Shown here one piece after another: positions 9,686 to 24,429 of a stretch of 64,000 nucleotides of DNA. The position numbers and the translations under genes were made by a program. Position 1 is the first letter of the stretch; each line of letters begins with the position of its first letter. This DNA is from Alkalispirochaeta sp. GTDB taxonomy: Bacteria > Spirochaetota > Spirochaetia > DSM-27196 > Alkalispirochaetaceae. The notes beneath the pieces were generated by a model that did no database searches, was not told the DNA's origin, and was given only the letters and a program-made list of their open reading frames with translations. Where the stretch lies: positions 3,232,001 through 3,296,000 of the forward strand of contig OZ271854.1 in assembly GCA_965601925.1 (NCBI GenBank), written 5' to 3'.

Positions 9686-11515
9686 TCAGTGCGTAATGGC
9701 TCTCACCGCCCTCCGGGCCGCACGGGCGGCGTCGTGGACGTTGCCCCAATCGTTACCGGACGTATAGGCGTCCCCCGCAAAATATATCCTGTTCGCGACC
9801 GGCTCGGATAACGTCCGCACCCGTTTCCAGTCCTCATAATCGTTGAGATACGCGCCTTGTATGTACGGCTCGTCCGACCAGTTCTGAACGATATGGTTTA
9901 GGTAGCTCGGCGTCGCTTTGTTTGAAAAAATCGAGTCCAACTCTCGCAAGATGTATCGCTTCAGATCTCCGTCGGATAGCGACATATAGCGTTGCGCCGC
10001 GTTCCCGACGGCGAACAATCCCAATATGTTTCTATCGGTCTGTTGACCGTATGCCGCATCAAAATAGGTTACGTGACCGGATCGCTTGGGAGTGACGCTC
10101 AAGTCAGTATATGCGGGGTAAAACTTTTCGGAGAACTCCAGGAATACTTTCATGCCGTCCCATACAACGGCCCTCTTTACGGCCTGTAGTTTGTGTCTCG
10201 GCAGCGGTGGAACGAACTCGATGAGGCCGGTCCGGATCACCGGGAGCGGTGCGGTCACGATAACCGCGTCGGCGGTGTACTCAGCGTCCTGTGTTCGTAC
10301 GATCACGGTGTCGTCCGTGTAGTCGATGGTGCGTACCGCGGCGTTATAGACGATATGGCGCGCTACCGACGGAACGACATACCGTTCAAAGAAATCGAAC
10401 CACGTCCCGTGGACGAACTTTCTGTCACGAAAGGAATCTAACGCGTGCATTGATAAGGTATTGTTCTTCCAAAGACCGATACGCTCGGCCTCCGTGTATC
10501 CCGTCGTACGGACGGCAACGGCGACCGAGTCGTCATTGACGATGGTGTCGAAGATGTCGGCGTCGGCGGTAAGCCACTCGGCCCCTAAGGGAATGGGGAA
10601 GTCGGCGAAGGAGTCGGTCTTCTTCATACGTCCCCCGTAGCGCGAGGTCGCCTCGAGAACTTGAAACGATACCTGCTGTTGACTCAAAAAATGCCCGGCC
10701 GTCAGCCCCGCGGCCCCGGCGCCGACGATAAGCACGTTCCCGGAAAAGCCCGAGACGGCTCCCCTCCCATGACGAGACGTGTTGGGAGTCCGTGGGTGCG
10801 CATCGTTGTCGGCGGCGCGGAGCTCCAAGAGATCCCAGAGGTCGCTCTCTTCGTCCTCTTCCTCCGGGAGGTAGTGCGTTATCGCCCGGCGGATTAACAC
10901 AATCGCGATCGCCAGTCCGAGAAACCCCGGTATGCTGAGGGCGATTCGGGTGACGGCATTGACCTGGGCCACCTGCTGATTGAACAGCGTCGTCCCGAAA
11001 TCGGCCGTTACGATCCGCAGATTGAGGAGGAAGTTCGCGATCACCGCCGCCACATTGATACCGAGTATGAGTATCGTCCCATTGCGTATGGCGCGAGATA
11101 CCGTGGGCTCTTCGAATAACCCCTTGAGCAGCGCCACCTGTCTCGGCGAGGTCGCATACAACGCCTGCGCAAAGAAATAGTGCATCATCGGTCTACCGAC
11201 GATGAGTGAGCCGCCGAACACCATAACCGTAAGGATGGAACCGAAGCTGTCCTTTACGGCAAACCGAATACCATCGACGAACCAGAACGTCAGGAGGCCG
11301 CTCATGATCGCGGACGCTCCGATGTAGCTCGTGATGAAGTTGAATCGCTTCGTGATGAAGAATAGATCGATGAGGACCCACGCCGCCGGCACGAGGGCGG
11401 CGGCGACGTAGGCGCCTACCGTTCCGAGGTGTTCATTCAGGTTATTTAGGATAAGAATGGGAACGACCGTTCCCATGACGATGTCAAGAACGAGTTTCAC
11501 TCTGGTCGTATTCAC
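9686..11515 (-). CDS. Fusion of a VC0807-like multi-TM membrane domain and a flavin-dependent amine oxidase family domain
   Basis: About 215 hydrophobic N-terminal residues (DIV...VVPILIL), then LIVGAGAAGL, LEA..RYGGR, LGAEW, W..EPYI.GAY and IYFAGDA. Confidence 0.8.
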   Translation of the reverse strand: MNTTRVKLVLDIVMGTVVPILILNNLNEHLGTVGAYVAAALVPAAWVLIDLFFITKRFNFITSYIGASAIMSGLLTFWFVDGIRFAVKDSFGSILTVMVFGGSLIVGRPMMHYFFAQALYATSPRQVALLKGLFEEPTVSRAIRNGTILILGINVAAVIANFLLNLRIVTADFGTTLFNQQVAQVNAVTRIALSIPGFLGLAIAIVLIRRAITHYLPEEEDEESDLWDLLELRAADNDAHPRTPNTSRHGRGAVSGFSGNVLIVGAGAAGLTAGHFLSQQQVSFQVLEATSRYGGRMKKTDSFADFPIPLGAEWLTADADIFDTIVNDDSVAVAVRTTGYTEAERIGLWKNNTLSMHALDSFRDRKFVHGTWFDFFERYVVPSVARHIVYNAAVRTIDYTDDTVIVRTQDAEYTADAVIVTAPLPVIRTGLIEFVPPLPRHKLQAVKRAVVWDGMKVFLEFSEKFYPAYTDLSVTPKRSGHVTYFDAAYGQQTDRNILGLFAVGNAAQRYMSLSDGDLKRYILRELDSIFSNKATPSYLNHIVQNWSDEPYIQGAYLNDYEDWKRVRTLSEPVANRIYFAGDAYTSGNDWGNVHDAARAARRAVRAITH

Positions 11516-12568: not shown

Positions 12569-13648
12569 ATGCGAAGGTGGAGTCTCATACCCGTTGTGTT
12601 CCTAACGAGCCTGGTGATCGTCGCATCGTTGTTTGCCGCGGGAGGGCAAGAGAGCGACGCGCCGTTGGTCGGCATTGCGATGCCGACGCAGTCTTCGCAG
12701 CGATGGATTGAAGACGGCGGCAACATGCGCACGATTCTCGAGGAGCGAGGATACCGCGTGGATCTACAGTACGCCGAGGACAGCATCGACGCCCAAGTCA
12801 ATCAGATCGAGAATATGATCACCAAGGGTGCCGATGTGTTGGTTATTGCGTCCATCGACGGCGAGTCGCTGACCAACGTGTTGGAGGTCGCCGCGGAGAA
12901 CGACATCCCCGTCATCGCCTACGATCGGTTGATTCGAAACACCCCGCACGTGAGTTACTACGCGACGTTCGACAACTACTTAGTCGGCGTGCAACAGGGG
13001 AACTACATCGTCGAAGCACTTGAGCTTGCCTCGGGTTCCGGGCCGTTTAATGTGGAGATCTTCGCCGGGAGTCCCGACGATAACAACGCGTATTTCTTCT
13101 TTAACGGCGCGATGGACCAGCTGCAACCCTATATCGACGGCGGGCAACTCGTGGTTCGAAGCGGCCAGACCGACTTTGACGAGGTGGCAACCCTACGGTG
13201 GGACGGCGCGACGGCGCAGCAACGGATGGATAACGTCATCACGGCCCATTATACCGATGCGCGTATCGACGCGGTACTCTCGCCGTATGACGGTATCTCG
13301 ATCGGCGTTCTCTCCTCGCTCAAGAGCGCCGGATATGGACAGAGCGACCTCGTCCTACCGATCGTTACCGGACAAGACGCCGAGCTCCCATCGGTGAAAT
13401 CGATACTCGCCGGCGAGCAGACCCAGACGGTCTTCAAAGATACGCGAGTATTGGCCGAGCGCGCCGTGAGCATGGTCGAGGCGGTGCTCGAGGGTGGCGC
13501 GGCGGAGGTGAACGACACGACGACCTACGACAACGGCGTCGTTGTGGTGCCGTCGTTCTTGGAGCAACCCGTGTCGGTCGACATCACCAACTGGGAAGAG
13601 GTGCTTGTCGGTTCCGGATACTACACGCGCGAGCAAGTGACGGAGTGA
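12569..13648 (+). CDS. chvE: Multiple monosaccharide ABC transporter substrate-binding protein
   Basis: [35 protein letters not shown] and [23 protein letters not shown] motifs. Confidence 0.93.
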
Positions 13649-13669
13649 TACCTATTCGCGCCGTACCGA

Positions 13670-13699
13670 CGGGATCGAACGCCGATGCGTTTGATCCCG
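13670..13699 (+). promoter_or_regulatory. Intergenic stem-loop (mRNA stabiliser or partial terminator) after chvE
   Basis: CGGGATCGAACGC-CGAT-GCGTTTGATCCCG forms a 13-bp stem with no U tract. Confidence 0.6.
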
Positions 13700-13737
13700 C
13701 TTCCACCCTCGCGATAGCGGGCTGAAAGGATCGCATC

Positions 13738-15291
13738 GTGGCGGACTATCTCCTGGAGATGCGAAACATCACCAAGGCGTTCGGAAGCGTGAACGCCTTG
13801 ACCGGGGTCGATCTTGAACTTCCCGGCGATGAGATTCGCGCACTGGTCGGTGAAAACGGCGCCGGCAAATCGACGCTGATGAACGTCCTGAGCGGAGTCT
13901 ATCCTCACGGAACCTACACCGGCGATATCATCTTTCGGGGGACGCCGTGCAGATTTCGAGATATTCGCGACAGCGAACGGCTCGGTATTGCGATTATCCA
14001 CCAGGAGTTGGCCCTGATCCCCGAACTCTCGATTGCGGAGAACGTCTTTCTCGGCAACGAGCGTCAGCGACGCGGGGTGATCGATTGGAATCTTACGTTC
14101 GCCCAAAGTAAGAAGCTTCTGAATAAGGTGGGTCTCGATGAGAGTCCCGGTACCTTGGTGGGAGATATCGGCGTGGGCAAGCAACAGCTCGTCGAGATCG
14201 CCAAGGCGCTGGCCAAGGAGGTGCGTCTCCTGATCCTCGACGAGCCGACCGCCGCTCTCAACGACGCCGAGAGTCGCAAGCTCCTACAACTCTTACGGGA
14301 TCTCAAGGCGCACGGTGTCACCTCGATATTGATCTCTCACAAACTGAACGAGGTCTCCGAGATAGCCGACGCGGTAACGATTCTCCGCGACGGTGAGGTG
14401 ATCGAGACACTTACGCGCGCCTCCGACGGGTTCGACGAGGATCGAATCATCAAGAGTATGGTCGGACGCGCGCTGGTCGATCGTTTCCCACGGCGCGAGG
14501 CGGTCGTCGGCGACGAGATATTCCGCGTGCGGAACTGGACCGTGTACCATCCCGAGCACGAGGATCGACGAGTAGTGCGCGACGTCACCTTCGGCCTTCG
14601 CCGCGGCGAGGTGGTGGGACTCGCCGGGTTGATGGGCGCGGGGCGGACGGAGCTCGCCATGAGTCTCTTCGGTCGTTCTTACGGCATAAAACACTCCGGT
14701 ACGGTCTTCGTTCACGGACGGGAGGTCGCGTTGCGTACCGTCGAGGATGCGATCGACAACCGGATCGCCTACGTCACCGAGGATCGCAAGAATCTCGGGT
14801 TGGTGTTGATCGACGACATAAAGCGCAATATCTCGTTGCCCAACCTCTCCGCAATCAGTCGGCGGGGTGTCATCGACGAGAACCAAGAGATCGCACGAGC
14901 CGATGGATATCGAACGCAGCTGTCGATCCGCAGTTCCGGCATCGACCAGACGGTAGAGAGCCTCTCGGGCGGTAACCAGCAGAAGGTGGTGCTCGGGAAG
15001 TGGCTCATGTCCGATCCGGAGATTCTGTTCCTCGACGAGCCGACGAGGGGCATCGACGTGGGTGCCAAGTACGAGATCTACACGATCATCAATGAGTTGG
15101 CGGCTCAGGGAAAGTGTTTGTTAATGATCTCCTCGGAGCTTCCCGAGCTTCTCGGCATGTGCGACCGCATCTATGTCGTGAACGCCGGCGAAATCGCCGG
15201 AGAGCTCGCCCGCGGCGAGGCGACGCAAGAATCGATCATGAAGATCATCATGACTCACCAGAGGAGCGTCAAGGAGAGGCATAATCGATGA
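13738..15291 (+). CDS. mmsA: Multiple monosaccharide ABC transporter ATP-binding protein (MmsA/GguA)
   Basis: Tandem ABC domains: [44 protein letters not shown]. Confidence 0.93.
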
Positions 15292-16460
15292 GCTCACTCA
15301 TTCAATTCTTCAGAAGTAACATTCGGCAGAACGGCATGGTCATGGCTCTGGTCTTCATCATGGTGCTGTTTCAGATACTGACCCGAGGAATTCTCTTCCG
15401 TCCGATGAACATTACCAACCTCGTGCTCCAGAACAGCTACATCTTGATTCTTGCAATCGGCATGCTTCTGTGTATTCTCACCGGTAACATCGACCTTTCG
15501 GTCGGATCGGTCGTCGCCTTCGTCGGCGCGGTCGCGGCGGTGATGATGGTCAACATGGATATCGGTGTCGCTCCGACGATAGTCGTATCACTTGCGATCG
15601 GCATCGTCGTCGGGATGTTTCACGGCGCGTTTATCGCGTTTGCCCGCATTCCGGCCTTCATCGTCACGCTTGCGGGAATGTTGATTTTTCGCGGCCTCAC
15701 CCTCGTGATTCTCAAGGGCCAAACGATCGGTCCCTTTGAGCGATCCTTCCAAAGCATCGCCGCCGGCTACCTTCCGGGGCGCGAGATCGAGATCGCGGGA
15801 TACAACGTAGTAGCTCTCGTCGTCGGAGTTGTGCTGTCGGTGTATTTCGTCATTGCGCTCCTCATGAGTCGCGCCGGTAAGGCGCGCTACGGATTCGATG
15901 TTCCGCCGGTCGGTATCGAGATCGCCCGTATCGTCTTCATCGTCGCTGCGATAAACGTGTTGACGCTGAGTTTGGCGGCGCATAACGGCATTCCGATCAT
16001 CTTGGTCCTGCTCTCGGCACTCATTCTGCTCTATACCTTCATCACCCGTAAGACTGTGTTCGGGCGTCATATCTATGCGTTGGGTGGAAATGAGAAGGCG
16101 GCGCGGCTCTCGGGCGTCAAAACGCAGAGGGTCATGTTTCTGGTCTACACCAATATGGGACTCTTGGCCGCGTTGGCGGGATTAGTCGTCGCGGGACGAC
16201 TCAACGCAGCCACGCCCAAGGCGGGCACGATGTTCGAGCTCGACGCGATCGCCGCCGCGTTCATCGGTGGTGCGTCCGCCTCGGGCGGTATCGGAACGGT
16301 CGTCGGCGCCGTCGTCGGCGGCCTGGTCATGGGTGTGCTCAACAACGGGATGTCCATCATGGGCGTAAGCGTCGATTGGCAGCAGGCGATAAAAGGGCTC
16401 GTACTCCTTGCCGCCGTCAGCTTCGATGTCTACACGAAAAACAAGGCCCACACCTCCTAA
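15288..16460 (+). CDS. mmsB: Multiple monosaccharide ABC transporter permease (MmsB/GguB)
   Basis: [44 protein letters not shown] and ELDAIAA motifs. Confidence 0.93.
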
Positions 16461-16527
16461 CCGACGACGTAGGCGTTCGACCGGAAATCGGTGGTCCTTC
16501 GAGCACCGAATGTAGTACCCTTGTCGC

Positions 16528-16704
16528 ATGAAGACGAATATGCTCGATACGAGCCGGCGTCGTACGGATCGGCGGCCGGTGCCCATCGGCGTGCGCACAG
16601 TTCAAGCCGCGTCGCGCATTCCCGATGGTCGTCAAACCCGTGCACGTACCCTTTCCCGTATCCTTCCCGTCTCCTCTCCCTGTCTTTGCCTCTGCTGTTG
16701 TTGA
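16528..16704 (+). CDS. Candidate cysteine-rich leader peptide (58 aa) of cysE-cysK
   Basis: Hand translation: MKTNMLDTSRRRTDRRPVPIGVRTVQAASRIPDGRQTRARTLSRILPVSSPCLCLCCC-stop. Five Cys codons fall in the last seven and none elsewhere; it ends 90 nt before cysE. Confidence 0.75.
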   Translation: MKTNMLDTSRRRTDRRPVPIGVRTVQAASRIPDGRQTRARTLSRILPVSSPCLCLCCC

Positions 16705-16794
16705 ACCTGCTCGCCAACTCCTAATTGTGGGCCTCGAAAACGGTACGCATCGTTCTCGGGGCAACGAGTCTCATAGTACGAAGGATGTACCGTC

Positions 16795-17640
16795 ATGAAG
16801 AACATCACAACACTTATCGACGATTTGCAGGAGAGTCATCGCAATCCGAGCCGCGGCCTCCCGTCTCGACGGGGCACTGCACAGTTTTTGGACGAATTGT
16901 TGGCGCTCCTCTTTCCACATTTCGCCTACGACGAACGCTACGGCTCATCCGAGGAGATTGCCGCCGCATTCATTCGTATCGAGCGACGCCTGCACCACCT
17001 CCTCGCTCCGCTGGAGGACCGCATGGAGCTGACATCGGAGGAGGGCGCGAGGGCGTTTTTGGACCATCTGCCGGCGGTGTATACGCTCCTGCAGGAAGAT
17101 GCGGCGGCGATCTACAACGGTGATCCCGCCGCCGAGTCGGTCGACGAGGTCGTTGCCGCCTATCCCGGCTTTTTCGCTATTGCGGCGTACCGCGTCGCGC
17201 ACTGCTTTTATCGCTCCGGCGTACCGGTCTTTCCGCGCATCATCACCGAGTACGCGCATCTGCGTACCGGGGTCGACATTCATCCCGGCGCCGAAATCGG
17301 GCGCGCCTTTTTCATCGACCACGCCACGGGCATCGTCATCGGCGAGACGACCAGGATCGGCAACCACGTGAAGATCTACCAAGGCGTCACGCTGGGGGCG
17401 TTGAGTGTCTCCAAAGAGATGCACAGCACCAAGCGCCACCCCACCATTGAGGATCGCGTTATCGTCTACTCGAACGCGACGATTCTCGGCGGCGACACGG
17501 TCGTGGGGCACGACAGTGTCATCGGCGGCAACTCGTGGGTCACCTCCAGCATCGAGCCGTACTCGGTTGTGTACAACCGCGCGGAGGTGCGTGTGCGCAA
17601 TACGCGCTCCTCGGACCATGAAATAATGTTTCACATCTAA
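16795..17640 (+). CDS. cysE: Serine O-acetyltransferase (CysE/EpsC type)
   Basis: [38 protein letters not shown] and KRHPT motifs. Confidence 0.95.
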
Positions 17641-17663: not shown

Positions 17664-18578
17664 ATGAAGATCGATACCATGTTAGAGGCGATCGGAAATA
17701 CGCCGCACCTCAGACTTAATCACCTCTACGACGAGCGGCACGAGGTATGGATGAAACTCGAACGTTCCAACCCCGGTGGGAGTATCAAGGATCGTATCGC
17801 CCTCTCGATGGTCGAGGCGGCCGAGCGCGACGGGCTCCTCTCGCCGGGTGGAACGATTATAGAGCCCACCTCGGGCAATACCGGCGTCGGCCTCGCGCTC
17901 GTTGGAGCGGTAAAGGGGTATCGGGTAATCCTGGTAATGCCCGAGTCGATGTCGATGGAGCGTCGACGGCTCATGGCGGTCTACGGCGCCGATTTCGAAC
18001 TCACACCCCGGGGCGAGGGCATGAAAGGGGCGATTCGTCGAGCCGAGGAGCTGACCGTCGAGCTCGACGGAGCGTGGATGCCCATGCAGTTCGCCAACCC
18101 CGCCAATCCCGCGATACACGAGGAGCGTACCGCCGCCGAAATCGCGGAGGATTTTCCCGACGGGCTGGACTACCTCATAACCGGCGTCGGAACCGGCGGG
18201 CACATCACCGGCGTCGCACGGCGGTTGAAAACGCTCTGGCCCGATGTGCGCGTTATCGCCGTGGAGCCGGCCGACTCGCCGGTGCTCAGCGGCGGTGAGC
18301 CGGCGAGCCACGCCATTCAGGGTATCGGCGCCGGCTTCATCCCCGAGGTCATGGATCAATCGCTTCTCGACGGAGTGGCGACGGTTACCAAAGCTGAGGC
18401 GTTCGAGTACGCCCGTCGCGCCGCCCGCGAAGAGGGAGCGCTCGTCGGCATTAGTTCCGGTGCGTCCCTGGCCGCAGTCGCCAAGAGGCTGGCGAACGAG
18501 ACCGAGCCGCGGCGCGTGCTGACCTTTTGCTACGATACCGGAGAGCGTTATCTCTCGATGGAAGACTTTTACATGTAG
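17664..18578 (+). CDS. cysK: Cysteine synthase A
   Basis: NPGGSIKDR (PLP lysine), [22 protein letters not shown] and DTGERYLS motifs. Confidence 0.96.
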
Positions 18579-21639: not shown

Positions 21640-21882
21640 CTACACTCCTCACACACCGTTCATGACGCGCACTCGTTCGCGCCGTTCCGCGTTTCGAGAT
21701 GACATTCTCTTATAGTTTCTAATCTTGGTTTCCAATAATTCAAATTGAAACGGAGTATGCCGAAACATACCTCACTACGCGCGCCGATTCGGGTCATTTT
21801 ACCACGCATATTCGCCTTGGGCAACGGCGGATATTCCTTGTGGGCATGTTGTCAATCCTTTCCCCAGAGCGAAGGATTACTT

Positions 21883-22233
21883 GTGCCAACGGAGAAGCGC
21901 AGACCAGAGATTCAGTACACCCTCTCGCGCAACATCAAGGCTGCCCGTGAAAAACTCGGCTATAGTCAACAAGCGTTGGCCGAGCGCGCCGATCTCTCCG
22001 CCGGACACATGAACGACCTCGAACAGGGCCGAAAATGGGTCTCGGCGGACACGCTCGAGCGACTCGCCGGCGCGCTCCTGATGGAGCCGTGGATGCTGCT
22101 TATCCCCGAGAATACGCCGGGTCGACCGGCGGATTACGATTTGCTCACGCACTTCGCCTCCCGGATGAGAGATCAGCTGAACACCGCCGTTGCAGAGACG
22201 CTGCAGGAACTACTCAAGAGTTCCGACCGGTAG
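21883..22233 (+). CDS. XRE family HTH transcriptional regulator
   Basis: NIKAAREKLGYSQQALAERADLS...NDLEQG...TLERLAGAL; probable GTG start at 21883 behind GAAGGA. Confidence 0.88.
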   Translation: MPTEKRRPEIQYTLSRNIKAAREKLGYSQQALAERADLSAGHMNDLEQGRKWVSADTLERLAGALLMEPWMLLIPENTPGRPADYDLLTHFASRMRDQLNTAVAETLQELLKSSDR

Positions 22234-23283
22234 AGAGGGTTTTTTTGAGCGCCCGAGCGCGCTGTGAGACGCCTTGTATATCCCAAAATCGAATTTTTCG
22301 ATATTTGTGACAATCGGAATCATAAGATGCATCTCTTGGCGCGTCATGACCGGAAGGTTCAGGAGGTCATTGCGATACTCGAGCGCTCGGCCGTTGTGGG
22401 CGGCTGCGAAGGTTTCATGGTCGTTGATCCGCTGAATTTGGCGCCGGTTGAGATCCCCAATCGGAGACGCGATCGTCCCTTCGATAACCGGAAGGAGCTT
22501 CCGTTCGATCTCCACGCCGTGCGAGTTACGCCCCGCGGCGAGTGCCGCCGCACTTGTCGTGCCCGTTCCGAGAAAGGGGTCCAGGACGAAATCCTCCTGC
22601 ATGCTGTACATGTTGATAAGGCGAAAAACGACCTCGAACGGAAACGCCGCGCTTCTGTGTCGGGAGCCGTTCCGCCGCAGAGCTTGGCGCGTTCCTTTGA
22701 GATCCCACACATCGGAGAACCACGCGTTGCGCTCTTCCCAGAAAAAGGCGCTGCGTTGCCTGCGCTCTTTCTCGTGGTCGGAGAAGACGCGCCTGCCGCC
22801 TTTGCGAAATATCAAGATGTGCTCGTGCTCCAACGTGACGTACGCTCCCGACGGGAGCATCCCCGATCCCATGAACTTGTTCGGTGCGTTGGTCTGCTTG
22901 CGCCACAGCACCGTGGGAAGCGACTCGAATCCCAAGGATTCGAAGGCCACCGTGATGCGGGCGTGGTTGGTGTAGAGGCGAAAGCCGTCGCCGACGGTGC
23001 GCGTCGCGTCGCCGATGTTGATGCAGGCAAATCCCCCGGGACGAAGCACGCGATAGCACTCCCGCCATACCGCGTCGAGAAGACGGTGCATCAGCTCGTG
23101 GGCCTCGACGCCGTTTCCCGCCTCCAGAGCCTTGGTGACAGCAGGATTTTGCGCCCCAAATGCGGAGTCCCAGATACCGATCATAGGATAAGGTGGAGAG
23201 GTCACCACGAGGTCGATCGAATCGGATGCAAGATATGAGATGTCGGCGGCGGACTGAAACCTGACGGTATGATGCGTTTCCAT
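22210..23283 (-). CDS. Orphan N4/N6 DNA methyltransferase, beta class (probably m4C)
   Basis: Catalytic DLVVTSPPY precedes the SAM motif VLDPFLGTGTT; start placed at ATG 23283 (METHH). Confidence 0.92.
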   Translation of the reverse strand: METHHTVRFQSAADISYLASDSIDLVVTSPPYPMIGIWDSAFGAQNPAVTKALEAGNGVEAHELMHRLLDAVWRECYRVLRPGGFACINIGDATRTVGDGFRLYTNHARITVAFESLGFESLPTVLWRKQTNAPNKFMGSGMLPSGAYVTLEHEHILIFRKGGRRVFSDHEKERRQRSAFFWEERNAWFSDVWDLKGTRQALRRNGSRHRSAAFPFEVVFRLINMYSMQEDFVLDPFLGTGTTSAAALAAGRNSHGVEIERKLLPVIEGTIASPIGDLNRRQIQRINDHETFAAAHNGRALEYRNDLLNLPVMTRQEMHLMIPIVTNIEKFDFGIYKASHSALGRSKKPSLPVGTLE

Positions 23284-23430
23284 CGCCTGTACCATATCAG
23301 TGAATCGATAGAGGGTGTACAAGTCGTGTTGCTTGCGTCGACCGACGCCGTTGAGTATCTTGGGCACCGGTACTACGTTGGAGAGATACAACGCACCGCT
23401 TTCGTTCAATCGATACATCCGGAGTAGCGT

Positions 23431-24429
23431 ATGAGCGCCATCGAAGTGCACAACCTGAGTCGAACCTATTTCTCAACCGTCGGCATCGTTCGTCGGCGTC
23501 GAAAAGAGATCGAAGCGGTGAAGCCGCTCTCATTTTCGGTGGAGGAGGGAGAACTCTTCGGGCTTCTCGGTCCCAACGGCGCCGGTAAAACTACCACCGT
23601 GAAAATGCTCACGACGCTGCTCATCCCCACCGGCGGAAGTGCTCGGGTGGCGGGATTCGATGTAGAGGGCGAGGCGCGGGAGGTCCAGCGGCGTATCGGC
23701 TTCATATTCGGCGGCGAGCGGGGGCTGTACTGGCGACTCTCGGGCGAAGACAACCTGAAGTATTTTGCGACGCTTTACCACGTCGATCCCGAGGTGACCT
23801 CGCGACGCATTCCCTATCTGTTGGAACTGGTCGGATTGAAGGGGCGGGGAAATGAGAAGGTAGAAGGGTACTCTCGTGGGATGAAGCAACGCCTCCACGT
23901 CGCGCGTACGCTTCTCCACGATCCACCCATTCTCTTTTTGGACGAGCCCACCATCGGTCTCGATCCGGTGGGGGCGCGTGATTTTCGCCGGGTAATCGGC
24001 GATTTACGCGACGAGGGAAAGACGATACTCCTCACGACTCACTACATGTACGAGGCGGATTTGTTGTGCAAACGAATCGCGGTAATCGATCGCGGAACGA
24101 TCGTGGCCCTCGATTCCCCGGGTAACCTCAAGCGGGTCGTGGACGATCTGTCGGTGATCGAGGTGGAGCTCTTCGGTGCGCCGGATGCGGTAACCGACTC
24201 CGTCGCGTCCATCCCCGGCGTGGAGGCGGTCTCGCTCGAGGAGCGCGAACAGCGTCAGGCACTTATGATTCAAACCCCACGCGGCGCGGAAATCGTCTCG
24301 ACGGTCATGGAGCGGCTTCAGGCCCATCGCGTGGGGCGAGTGACGGTACGGGAGCCGACGTTGGAGGACGCCTATGTTCGCCTGGTCGACGGAACGACGG
24401 GACGGGACACGGGGAACGATCGCGCATGA
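23431..24429 (+). CDS. ABC exporter ATP-binding protein (DrrA-like)
   Basis: GPNGAGKTT, YSRGMKQR, LDEPTIGLD, TTHYM and C-terminal EPTLEDAY. Confidence 0.92.
   Translation: MSAIEVHNLSRTYFSTVGIVRRRRKEIEAVKPLSFSVEEGELFGLLGPNGAGKTTTVKMLTTLLIPTGGSARVAGFDVEGEAREVQRRIGFIFGGERGLYWRLSGEDNLKYFATLYHVDPEVTSRRIPYLLELVGLKGRGNEKVEGYSRGMKQRLHVARTLLHDPPILFLDEPTIGLDPVGARDFRRVIGDLRDEGKTILLTTHYMYEADLLCKRIAVIDRGTIVALDSPGNLKRVVDDLSVIEVELFGAPDAVTDSVASIPGVEAVSLEEREQRQALMIQTPRGAEIVSTVMERLQAHRVGRVTVREPTLEDAYVRLVDGTTGRDTGNDRA

Follow-up and report, generated by a model that had tools for sequence, protein, structure and literature searches.

The closest described counterparts of the leader reported here are the polycysteine leaderless small open reading frames (sORFs) of mycobacteria, for which attenuation was shown in M. 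smegmatis (Ms5788A) by Canestrari et al. (10.1101/834739), who also name Rv2334A, located before cysK1-cysE; this system is cited in PMC13236596. According to the same report, pairing between the Cys tract and the Shine-Dalgarno (SD) sequence was shown for Ms5788A only and need not hold at all loci, and its main text mentions neither spirochaetes nor Bacteroidota. Previously, Seliverstov et al. (2005, PMC1262725) had predicted cys leaders without terminators in Actinobacteria, proposing that they depend on Rho through polypyrimidine motifs. Additionally, the uORFC-8-2 motif, found before cysS in Rhodobacterales, has been proposed to be a Cys-tRNA sensor (Brewer et al. 2021, PMC8632094). Regarding Rho, a review (PMC12360218) describes attenuators gated by an upstream open reading frame (uORF), such as tnaC, speFL and cruR, with the rut site of Bordetella cruR lying inside the uORF, and stem-loops that lack a U tract have been reported at Rho-dependent 3′ ends (10.1101/2023.10.02.560326).

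The initial annotation of the locus knew of no description of such a leader in Spirochaetota, and the literature searched, with subscription papers and supplements outside its scope, yielded no publication on one in spirochaetes, nor any describing poly-Cys leaders in Bacteroidota. A 2010 survey of bacterial attenuators, reportedly by Lopatovskaya and colleagues, may bear on priority.

The locus lies in a window of 64,000 nt, the whole stretch of DNA analysed, from the 5.05-Mb genome of the host Alkalispirochaeta (G000). Its features, all on the plus strand, are the following:

16512..16521, plus strand: putative promoter motif GTAGTACCCT, with the −10-like hexamer TACCCT at 16516-16521, shared with six congeners
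16528..16704, plus strand: uORF of 58 codons, probably leaderless, read from the sequence, with a second Met at 16540
16639..16666, plus strand: segment able, in predicted duplexes, to pair with the SD and AUG of cysE (as a candidate anti-SD) or else with the hairpin below, on its 5′ arm
16647..16691, plus strand: C/U-rich tract inside the uORF (39 of 45 are pyrimidines), candidate Rho loading site
16681..16704, plus strand: putative sensor codons, C-L-C-L-C-C-C-stop, rank 1 of 220,396 stops, read by a single tRNA-Cys(GCA) gene
16731..16762, plus strand: stable predicted hairpin without a U tract, 26 nt after the uORF stop, candidate pause or 3′-end stem-loop
16780..16785, plus strand: SD-like GAAGGA of cysE
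16795..17640, plus strand: cysE/epsC, serine O-acetyltransferase, 281 aa (NF041874 over cut-off; the only tblastn match in the genome)
17664..18578, plus strand: cysK, cysteine synthase A, 304 aa (TIGR01139 over cut-off)

The uORF opens with the ATG at 16528, closes with the TGA at 16702-16704 and leaves a gap of 90 nt to cysE. Its Cys codons (16681 TGT, 16687 TGC, 16693 TGC, 16696 TGT and 16699 TGT; there is no other Cys in it) fill five of the last seven positions, three of them consecutive, just as the initial annotation had described, and the profile matches agree with its assignment of the next two genes to cysteine biosynthesis. When all 220,396 six-frame stops of the genome are considered, this is the only one with at least five Cys in the last seven codons; four are found at 7 stops and three at 182. 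Given this rarity and the six plus-strand stops of the intergenic stretch, the chance of such a cluster is about 3e-5, a value qualified by the fact that the five-in-seven criterion was picked after the ORF had been seen. At least four Cys within 10 codons are found in 7 of the 7,842 intergenic ATG-led short ORFs, the uORF among them, and five Cys in two, while none of 100 composition-matched simulations reached at least four Cys. The unannotated uORF with its terminal Cys cluster is confirmed as a real feature. The second Met at 16540, the C/U tract and the hairpin listed above are absent from the initial annotation. The genome has 51 tRNA genes, with that for tRNA-Cys(GCA) in a single copy, and genome-wide scans of stops and short ORFs found one poly-Cys locus only, that is, no multi-locus ribulon. 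As for the peptide, it matches no Pfam or NCBIfam family, and its exact sequence is absent from the protein collection searched.

The geometry of the start agrees with the earlier description as well. The hexamer TACCCT precedes the ATG by 6 nt, the ATG has no SD, GGTCCT occupies the −35 position without being a match to a −35 box, and a promoter scan returned no promoter-like site. The leaderless character that had been read into this arrangement is supported by the genome as a whole, where, of 2,063 starts predicted roughly, 114 have TAnnnT 6 nt before the ATG (the other spacings give 13-61), as do only 11 of 2,277 internal ATGs used as a control. This peak suggests that leaderless starts are common in this genome, or at least look so. 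Additionally, T is enriched at −35/−34 of the predicted starts, and an AGGAG peak is observed genome-wide 5-6 nt before the ATG.

Further support comes from the sequence GTAGTACYCT-N6-ATG, which occurs once in the genome, at the uORF, and which directly starts cysE in six congeners chosen for showing it (G004, G016, G014, G006, G005 and G011). TAGCCG, at 17 nt, is present in five of these six and absent from G000. Consequently, the uORF occupies the position where relatives begin cysE, and the cysE of G000, downstream of it, has its own SD. The uORF is thus probably leaderless, with its start codon at the 5′ end of the transcript. The hexamer TACCCT occurs once more at 16647, as a competing −10 candidate. 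This copy belongs to one of two pairs of 8-nt direct repeats, in which the −10 region appears again inside the uORF (16515-16522 and 16646-16653) and the uORF start appears again at the start of cysE (16527-16534 and 16794-16801), which hints at an origin or relocation of the leader through a duplication at its start codon.

Directly upstream is a chvE-gguA-gguB monosaccharide ABC operon (12569-16460; chvE and gguB by profile match), with gguB ending at 16460. The stretch 16461-16509 after it contains weak hairpins and no terminator, so read-through into the leader is possible. Elsewhere in the window, a 609-aa ORF at 9686-11515 on the minus strand apparently combines, by eye, a membrane domain with a flavin amine-oxidase-like domain, and an HTH-type gene lies convergent with a DNA methyltransferase-like gene bearing an SPPY motif (21745-23451, by eye). 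Three FlaA genes over cut-off, from a family present in none of 14 control genomes, agree with a spirochaete host.

We consider it likely that the uORF is a leaderless Cys-tRNA sensor that raises cysE-cysK expression when cysteine is short, as had been proposed. This reading, made from sequence comparison, draws on the first rank of the Cys cluster among the stops of the genome, the modal 6-nt spacing, the promoter of the congeners and a second poly-Cys leader before cysE-cysK in the congener G002. By contrast, only two spirochaete examples are found, the uORF is long for a leader, Leu codons interrupt two of its Cys, and a −35 box is absent. Other ways of reading the region found no place. 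Selenocysteine read-through of the UGA was rejected, as there is no selB over cut-off and none of the 51 tRNA genes has a UCA anticodon, and so was read-through or in-frame fusion to cysE, which an in-frame TAG at 16774 would block. Likewise, the leader has no Rfam match that would indicate a T-box or S-box riboswitch, only two sub-threshold lncRNA matches with E above 1.

In the proposed mechanism, transcription would start at or near A16528 and a ribosome would initiate on the 5′ AUG of the uORF. When Cys-tRNA is low, this ribosome would stall at codons 52-58. With plentiful cysteine, it would finish and leave, the C/U tract would be left bare, and Rho would load and catch up with the polymerase, either close to the U-less hairpin or within the first part of cysE. 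When cysteine is short, the stalled ribosome would cover the 3′ part of the tract and separate the rest of it from the polymerase, so that transcription would continue into cysE-cysK.

Such a Rho-dependent attenuation is the output that we slightly and tentatively favour, because of the rare C/U tract, the U-less hairpin and the presence of a rho gene. There are only six such C/U clusters in the genome, and the C-G excess of +20 in the 70 nt at 16612-16681 falls in the top 0.09% of genome windows. In folds without ribosomes, 51-62% of the tract is unpaired. An 11-nt tandem duplication is part of the tract, which could owe its origin to slippage. As for the hairpin, the stretch 16725-16770, which was chosen around it, folds with −19.6 kcal/mol (z −3.58; 1 of 200 shuffles as good), while the leader taken as a whole shows no folding advantage over shuffles (z +0.93). 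No intrinsic terminator was found by a scan between the uORF and cysE, and the longest T run in 16705-16794 is 2. The latter is the firmer point, since the scanner, which can miss long-looped terminators, missed one in the Bacteroidota locus L081. In G002 only a weak C excess is observed in the leader and, consequently, Rho would not be a shared output.

A close rival to Rho retains the same sensor and differs in its output, which would be translational: the segment 16639-16666 would mask the SD and AUG of cysE, and a queue of ribosomes would free the SD. We regard this output as possible, though not probable. For this segment, duplexes of −13.0 kcal/mol, with the SD and AUG, and of −12.4 kcal/mol are predicted; when the fold stops 25 nt inside cysE, the pair probabilities reach about 0.6, and when it stops at 60 nt they are lost. 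The Cys codons lie ahead of the segment by roughly the length of one ribosome, and a queue of two ribosomes is predicted to free the SD more than one: in folds ending at 16800-16810, the cost of opening the SD is 3.8-4.6 kcal/mol without ribosomes, 2.1-2.9 with one at codons 52-57 and 0.5-1.4 with two at codons 52-58. Unmasking of this type has a tested precedent in Ms5788A (10.1101/834739), and the predicted switch is clear in G002, where the Cys tract pairs with the SD region in the fold and the cost falls from 6.8-7.2 kcal/mol to 2.2-3.5 with a ribosome at Cys codons 18-22. However, one ribosome at codon 58 of the G000 uORF gives little or no relief (3.6-4.2 kcal/mol), ribosomes at the non-Cys codons 42-50 relieve equally, and the Cys codons themselves hardly pair with the SD (−5.7 kcal/mol). 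Moreover, the effect vanishes in folds ending at 16835 or beyond, in which the cost is about 1 kcal/mol in every ribosome state. Even in G002, placing a ribosome on the final two Cys codons (24 and 25) raises the cost, to about 9.7 kcal/mol, and the queue model depends on the fold boundary. Altogether, the ribosome-masking fold simulations found no robust SD switch in G000. The Rho and SD-unmasking outputs may also act jointly through polarity, and other outputs of the same sensor are unlikely.

The Cys-tRNA sensor had been expected to show a Cys cluster conserved across Spirochaetota, which is not what the relatives display. A CysE match was found in 40 of 41 genomes; 30 loci were fetched, and 28 remained after two with less than 200 nt upstream were dropped. 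ATG-led leaders with at least four Cys precede cysE in 2 of these 28 loci, those of G000 and G002. Linkage to cysK is observed in three of the 28 (G000, G002 and G019), all from one family; the leader is present in two of the three and absent before cysE at the linked locus of G019, and it is absent from all 25 unlinked loci, two of which end too soon after cysE to judge linkage. In the G019 locus (L013), the cysE frame continues into the start of cysK, through either a real overlap or an assembly frameshift. The leader of G002 has 43 codons, with seven Cys within nine codons in mixed TGC and TGT; it overlaps the start of cysE out of frame and is preceded by TATTTT-N6-ATG, that is, by the TAnnnT geometry. 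The two leaders align solely over their Cys codons (18 nt; 2 of 2,000 shuffles as good).

Searches beyond these loci gave no further examples. Close CysK matches were found in 3 of 99 in the order, that of G002 being cut by the contig end. No leader was seen at 30 stand-alone cysK loci (29 from 82 non-self matching genomes plus one), one of which shows four Cys far upstream with no Met in the stretch seen. The same is true of 37 cysD and sbp loci (30 of 46 matching cysD loci and 7 of 7 sbp loci), where the one ATG-led cluster lies inside an upstream gene: at L202 (G093), an ORF with a CCCPC cluster stands 165 nt before cysD, out of frame in the end of that gene, probably by chance. A multi-locus Cys ribulon in the order was accordingly rejected for the cysD, sbp and stand-alone cysK loci examined. 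None of 442 metagenome candidates was confirmed; of 29 metagenome pattern matches, one was a true cysE-cysK junction, without upstream DNA. A search for the leader DNA in five relatives returned short matches only (best E 0.013). Consequently, the leader is narrowly distributed, in two genomes, and is not phylum-wide.

This distribution bears on the possibility that the uORF is a decaying relic of an ancestral leader, no longer regulating, in a group where most relatives lost the leader and start cysE at this promoter. The CysE proteins of 13 members of family f1 group in a single clade (SH-aLRT 99) that excludes 17 other CysE of spirochaetes, and the leader is found at 2 of these 13 loci; a fourteenth, G001, lacks it. 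The lack of a terminator and of a robust structural switch would also fit a relic. Nevertheless, in the absence of selection, a frame running from a promoter-set ATG through five intact Cys codons would decay, as would a new SD for cysE, and the loci of the genus that lack the leader also lack the link to cysK, so that we find a relic quite unlikely.

Regarding the origin of the genes, the CysE type of G000 (the f1 type) is found only in family f1 among 401 genomes of the class. One quick tree unites the CysE of G000 and G002, with weak support (83), and the other tree does not resolve them. An AU test on 40 of 110 sequences, with a quick tree and no outside root, does not reject a grouping of all spirochaete CysE on a single side of one branch (p 0.81). 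Gene order and similarity suggest that cysE-cysK could have been transferred from Bacteroidota. Within genus g1, some species have the CysE type common among spirochaetes and others the f1 type, with one match per genome and some of each behind a similar upstream context; a possible explanation of this pattern is gene replacement.

Additionally, 79 non-spirochaete cysE loci (80 fetched, one dropped), nearly all from Bacteroidota or Balneolota by title, were searched for ATG-led leaders with at least four Cys, which are present in five, against 0.25 expected and none on the reverse strand. By partner, they are found at 3 of 24 loci before cysK, at 0 of 46 before cysM-like genes and at 2 of 9 with no partner seen, although many of the leader-less loci may have other operon genes upstream. 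In Bacteroidota, leaders with 3-7 Cys lie about 200 nt before cysE (L064, L067, L069, L074, L081, L084 and L087), and all seven of these chosen leaders fold into a hairpin followed by a U run after the Cys leader, with a CCCTTTC...GAAAGGG stem common to five. The terminator scanner confirmed one of the two tested, finding that of L067. From these folds, the Bacteroidota leaders look like classical cysteine transcription attenuators. By eye, 10-11 nt of the 5′ arms of the L081 and L084 terminator stems recur at 16648-16658, in the opening part of the C/U tract, perhaps by chance; in G000 they precede the Cys codons, and a 3′ arm to match is lacking. Some of the titles are discordant among near-identical CysE (L068 and L111, Planktophila and Chryseobacterium; L064 and L067, Rikenella and Salinivirgaceae), and L114 has a Thalassovita title among CysE of Cyclobacteriaceae; these are probably mislabelled or contaminated bins.

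The comparison of the leaders also weighs on the idea that the peptide itself acts, either as a small Cys-tailed protein that binds metals or thiols or as an arrest peptide that senses a ligand, like CruR (with its CXXC) or TnaC. Terminal Cys clusters can bind metals, and 58 aa is long for a leader in which only the codons matter. The absence of any family match stands against it, as do length, tail and N-terminus, none of which is conserved with the leaders of G002 or Bacteroidota; the sole shared trait is the Cys codons before cysteine-synthesis genes. A function of the peptide is distinctly improbable.

Finally, we hold it highly improbable that the cluster is a chance product of a pyrimidine- and TG-rich intergenic stretch, with a DNA-binding protein, Rrf2/CymR-like for instance, regulating the operon. 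Although the genome has three Rrf2 genes over cut-off, one of them near cysM with CymR as its best, sub-threshold model, the probability of about 3e-5, the 100 simulations without at least four Cys and the independent recurrence in G002 argue against chance, and a 17-nt piece of the cysM divergent promoter has no match in the window at three mismatches (the true operator sequence may differ). The Rrf2 gene in question belongs to a second sulfur locus (L245:2245-6465; about 3984700-3988950 of G000:C1), which comprises cysM with leaderless geometry and ABC-transporter genes and, on the divergent side, an OsmC-like and a trans-sulfuration-like gene (both by eye) together with this Rrf2 gene. By eye, the AT-rich divergent promoter of cysM looks similar to those of sbp in L236 and L237.

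Returning to the Cys-tRNA sensor, a broader and rather doubtful extension of it would be a portable Cys-codon sensor attached to cysE-cysK and provided with three outputs. In Bacteroidota the output would be an intrinsic terminator; in G002, a hairpin that sequesters the SD; in G000, a Rho site within the uORF or else an anti-SD set back from the Cys codons by the length of one ribosome, for which a queue of two ribosomes would be needed. Gain or loss of such a sensor would take place precisely at the leaderless start codon of a common promoter. The genus offers a natural comparison, in which one promoter is found both with a leader and without one, alongside two leaders whose predicted outputs differ. 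If the sensor is real, ribosome-read cysteine sensing, tested so far in mycobacteria among the papers found, would extend to spirochaetes, and the old question of whether terminator-less cys leaders act through Rho, as proposed in 2005, or through SD masking would become testable. An amino-acid attenuator driven by tRNA charging and gated by Rho or by a queue would, if true, be new in a spirochaete. The impact is limited, as the class is already known and the element is confined here to two genomes.

When compared with known systems, the leader of G000 is very probably a cysteine-sensing leader of an already known class, narrowly distributed. A classical attenuator of the trpL/hisL type needs an intrinsic terminator between the leader and the first gene, which is absent here. 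The Bacteroidota leaders share with G000 the gene pair and its order and a Cys cluster in a short upstream ORF, and their CysK are 59-68% identical to that of the window, but their Cys cluster lies in the middle of the peptide and is followed by a hairpin and a U run, whereas G000 and G002 have no U-tract terminator. The uORFC-8-2 motif (PMC8632094) is also a uORF with tandem Cys codons; unlike G000, it has only two Cys, an intrinsic terminator with a U run and cysS as its target.

The likeness is greater with the mycobacterial attenuators described by Canestrari et al., with which G000 shares a probably leaderless geometry, a C-terminal run of no fewer than three Cys codons in succession, the lack of an intrinsic terminator, downstream genes for cysteine synthesis and a gap of about 90 nt (97 nt for Ms5788A). 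The analogy that had been drawn with them holds for this poly-Cys geometry and fails for the pairing of the Cys tract with the SD, since in G000 another segment of the uORF pairs instead. The uORF of G000 is also longer, with 58 codons and 177 nt against 30 codons and an sORF limit of less than 150 nt in the mycobacterial paper; its gene order is cysE-cysK, and it stands at one locus, with no multi-locus ribulon, in a different phylum. The likeness is one of functional class, and sequence homology is not expected. Similarly, the leaders predicted in Actinobacteria (PMC1262725) have a Cys run near the stop, no terminator hairpin and polypyrimidine, although those motifs, called a weak prediction by their authors, lie between leader and gene and the tract of G000 is internal to the uORF and precedes the Cys codons. 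As in tnaC, speFL and cruR (PMC12360218), the stalled ribosome proposed for G000 would shield a rut site, which in cruR is also inside the uORF; however, those systems sense a free ligand through the nascent peptide, whereas the signal proposed for G000 would be uncharged tRNA at its cognate codons.
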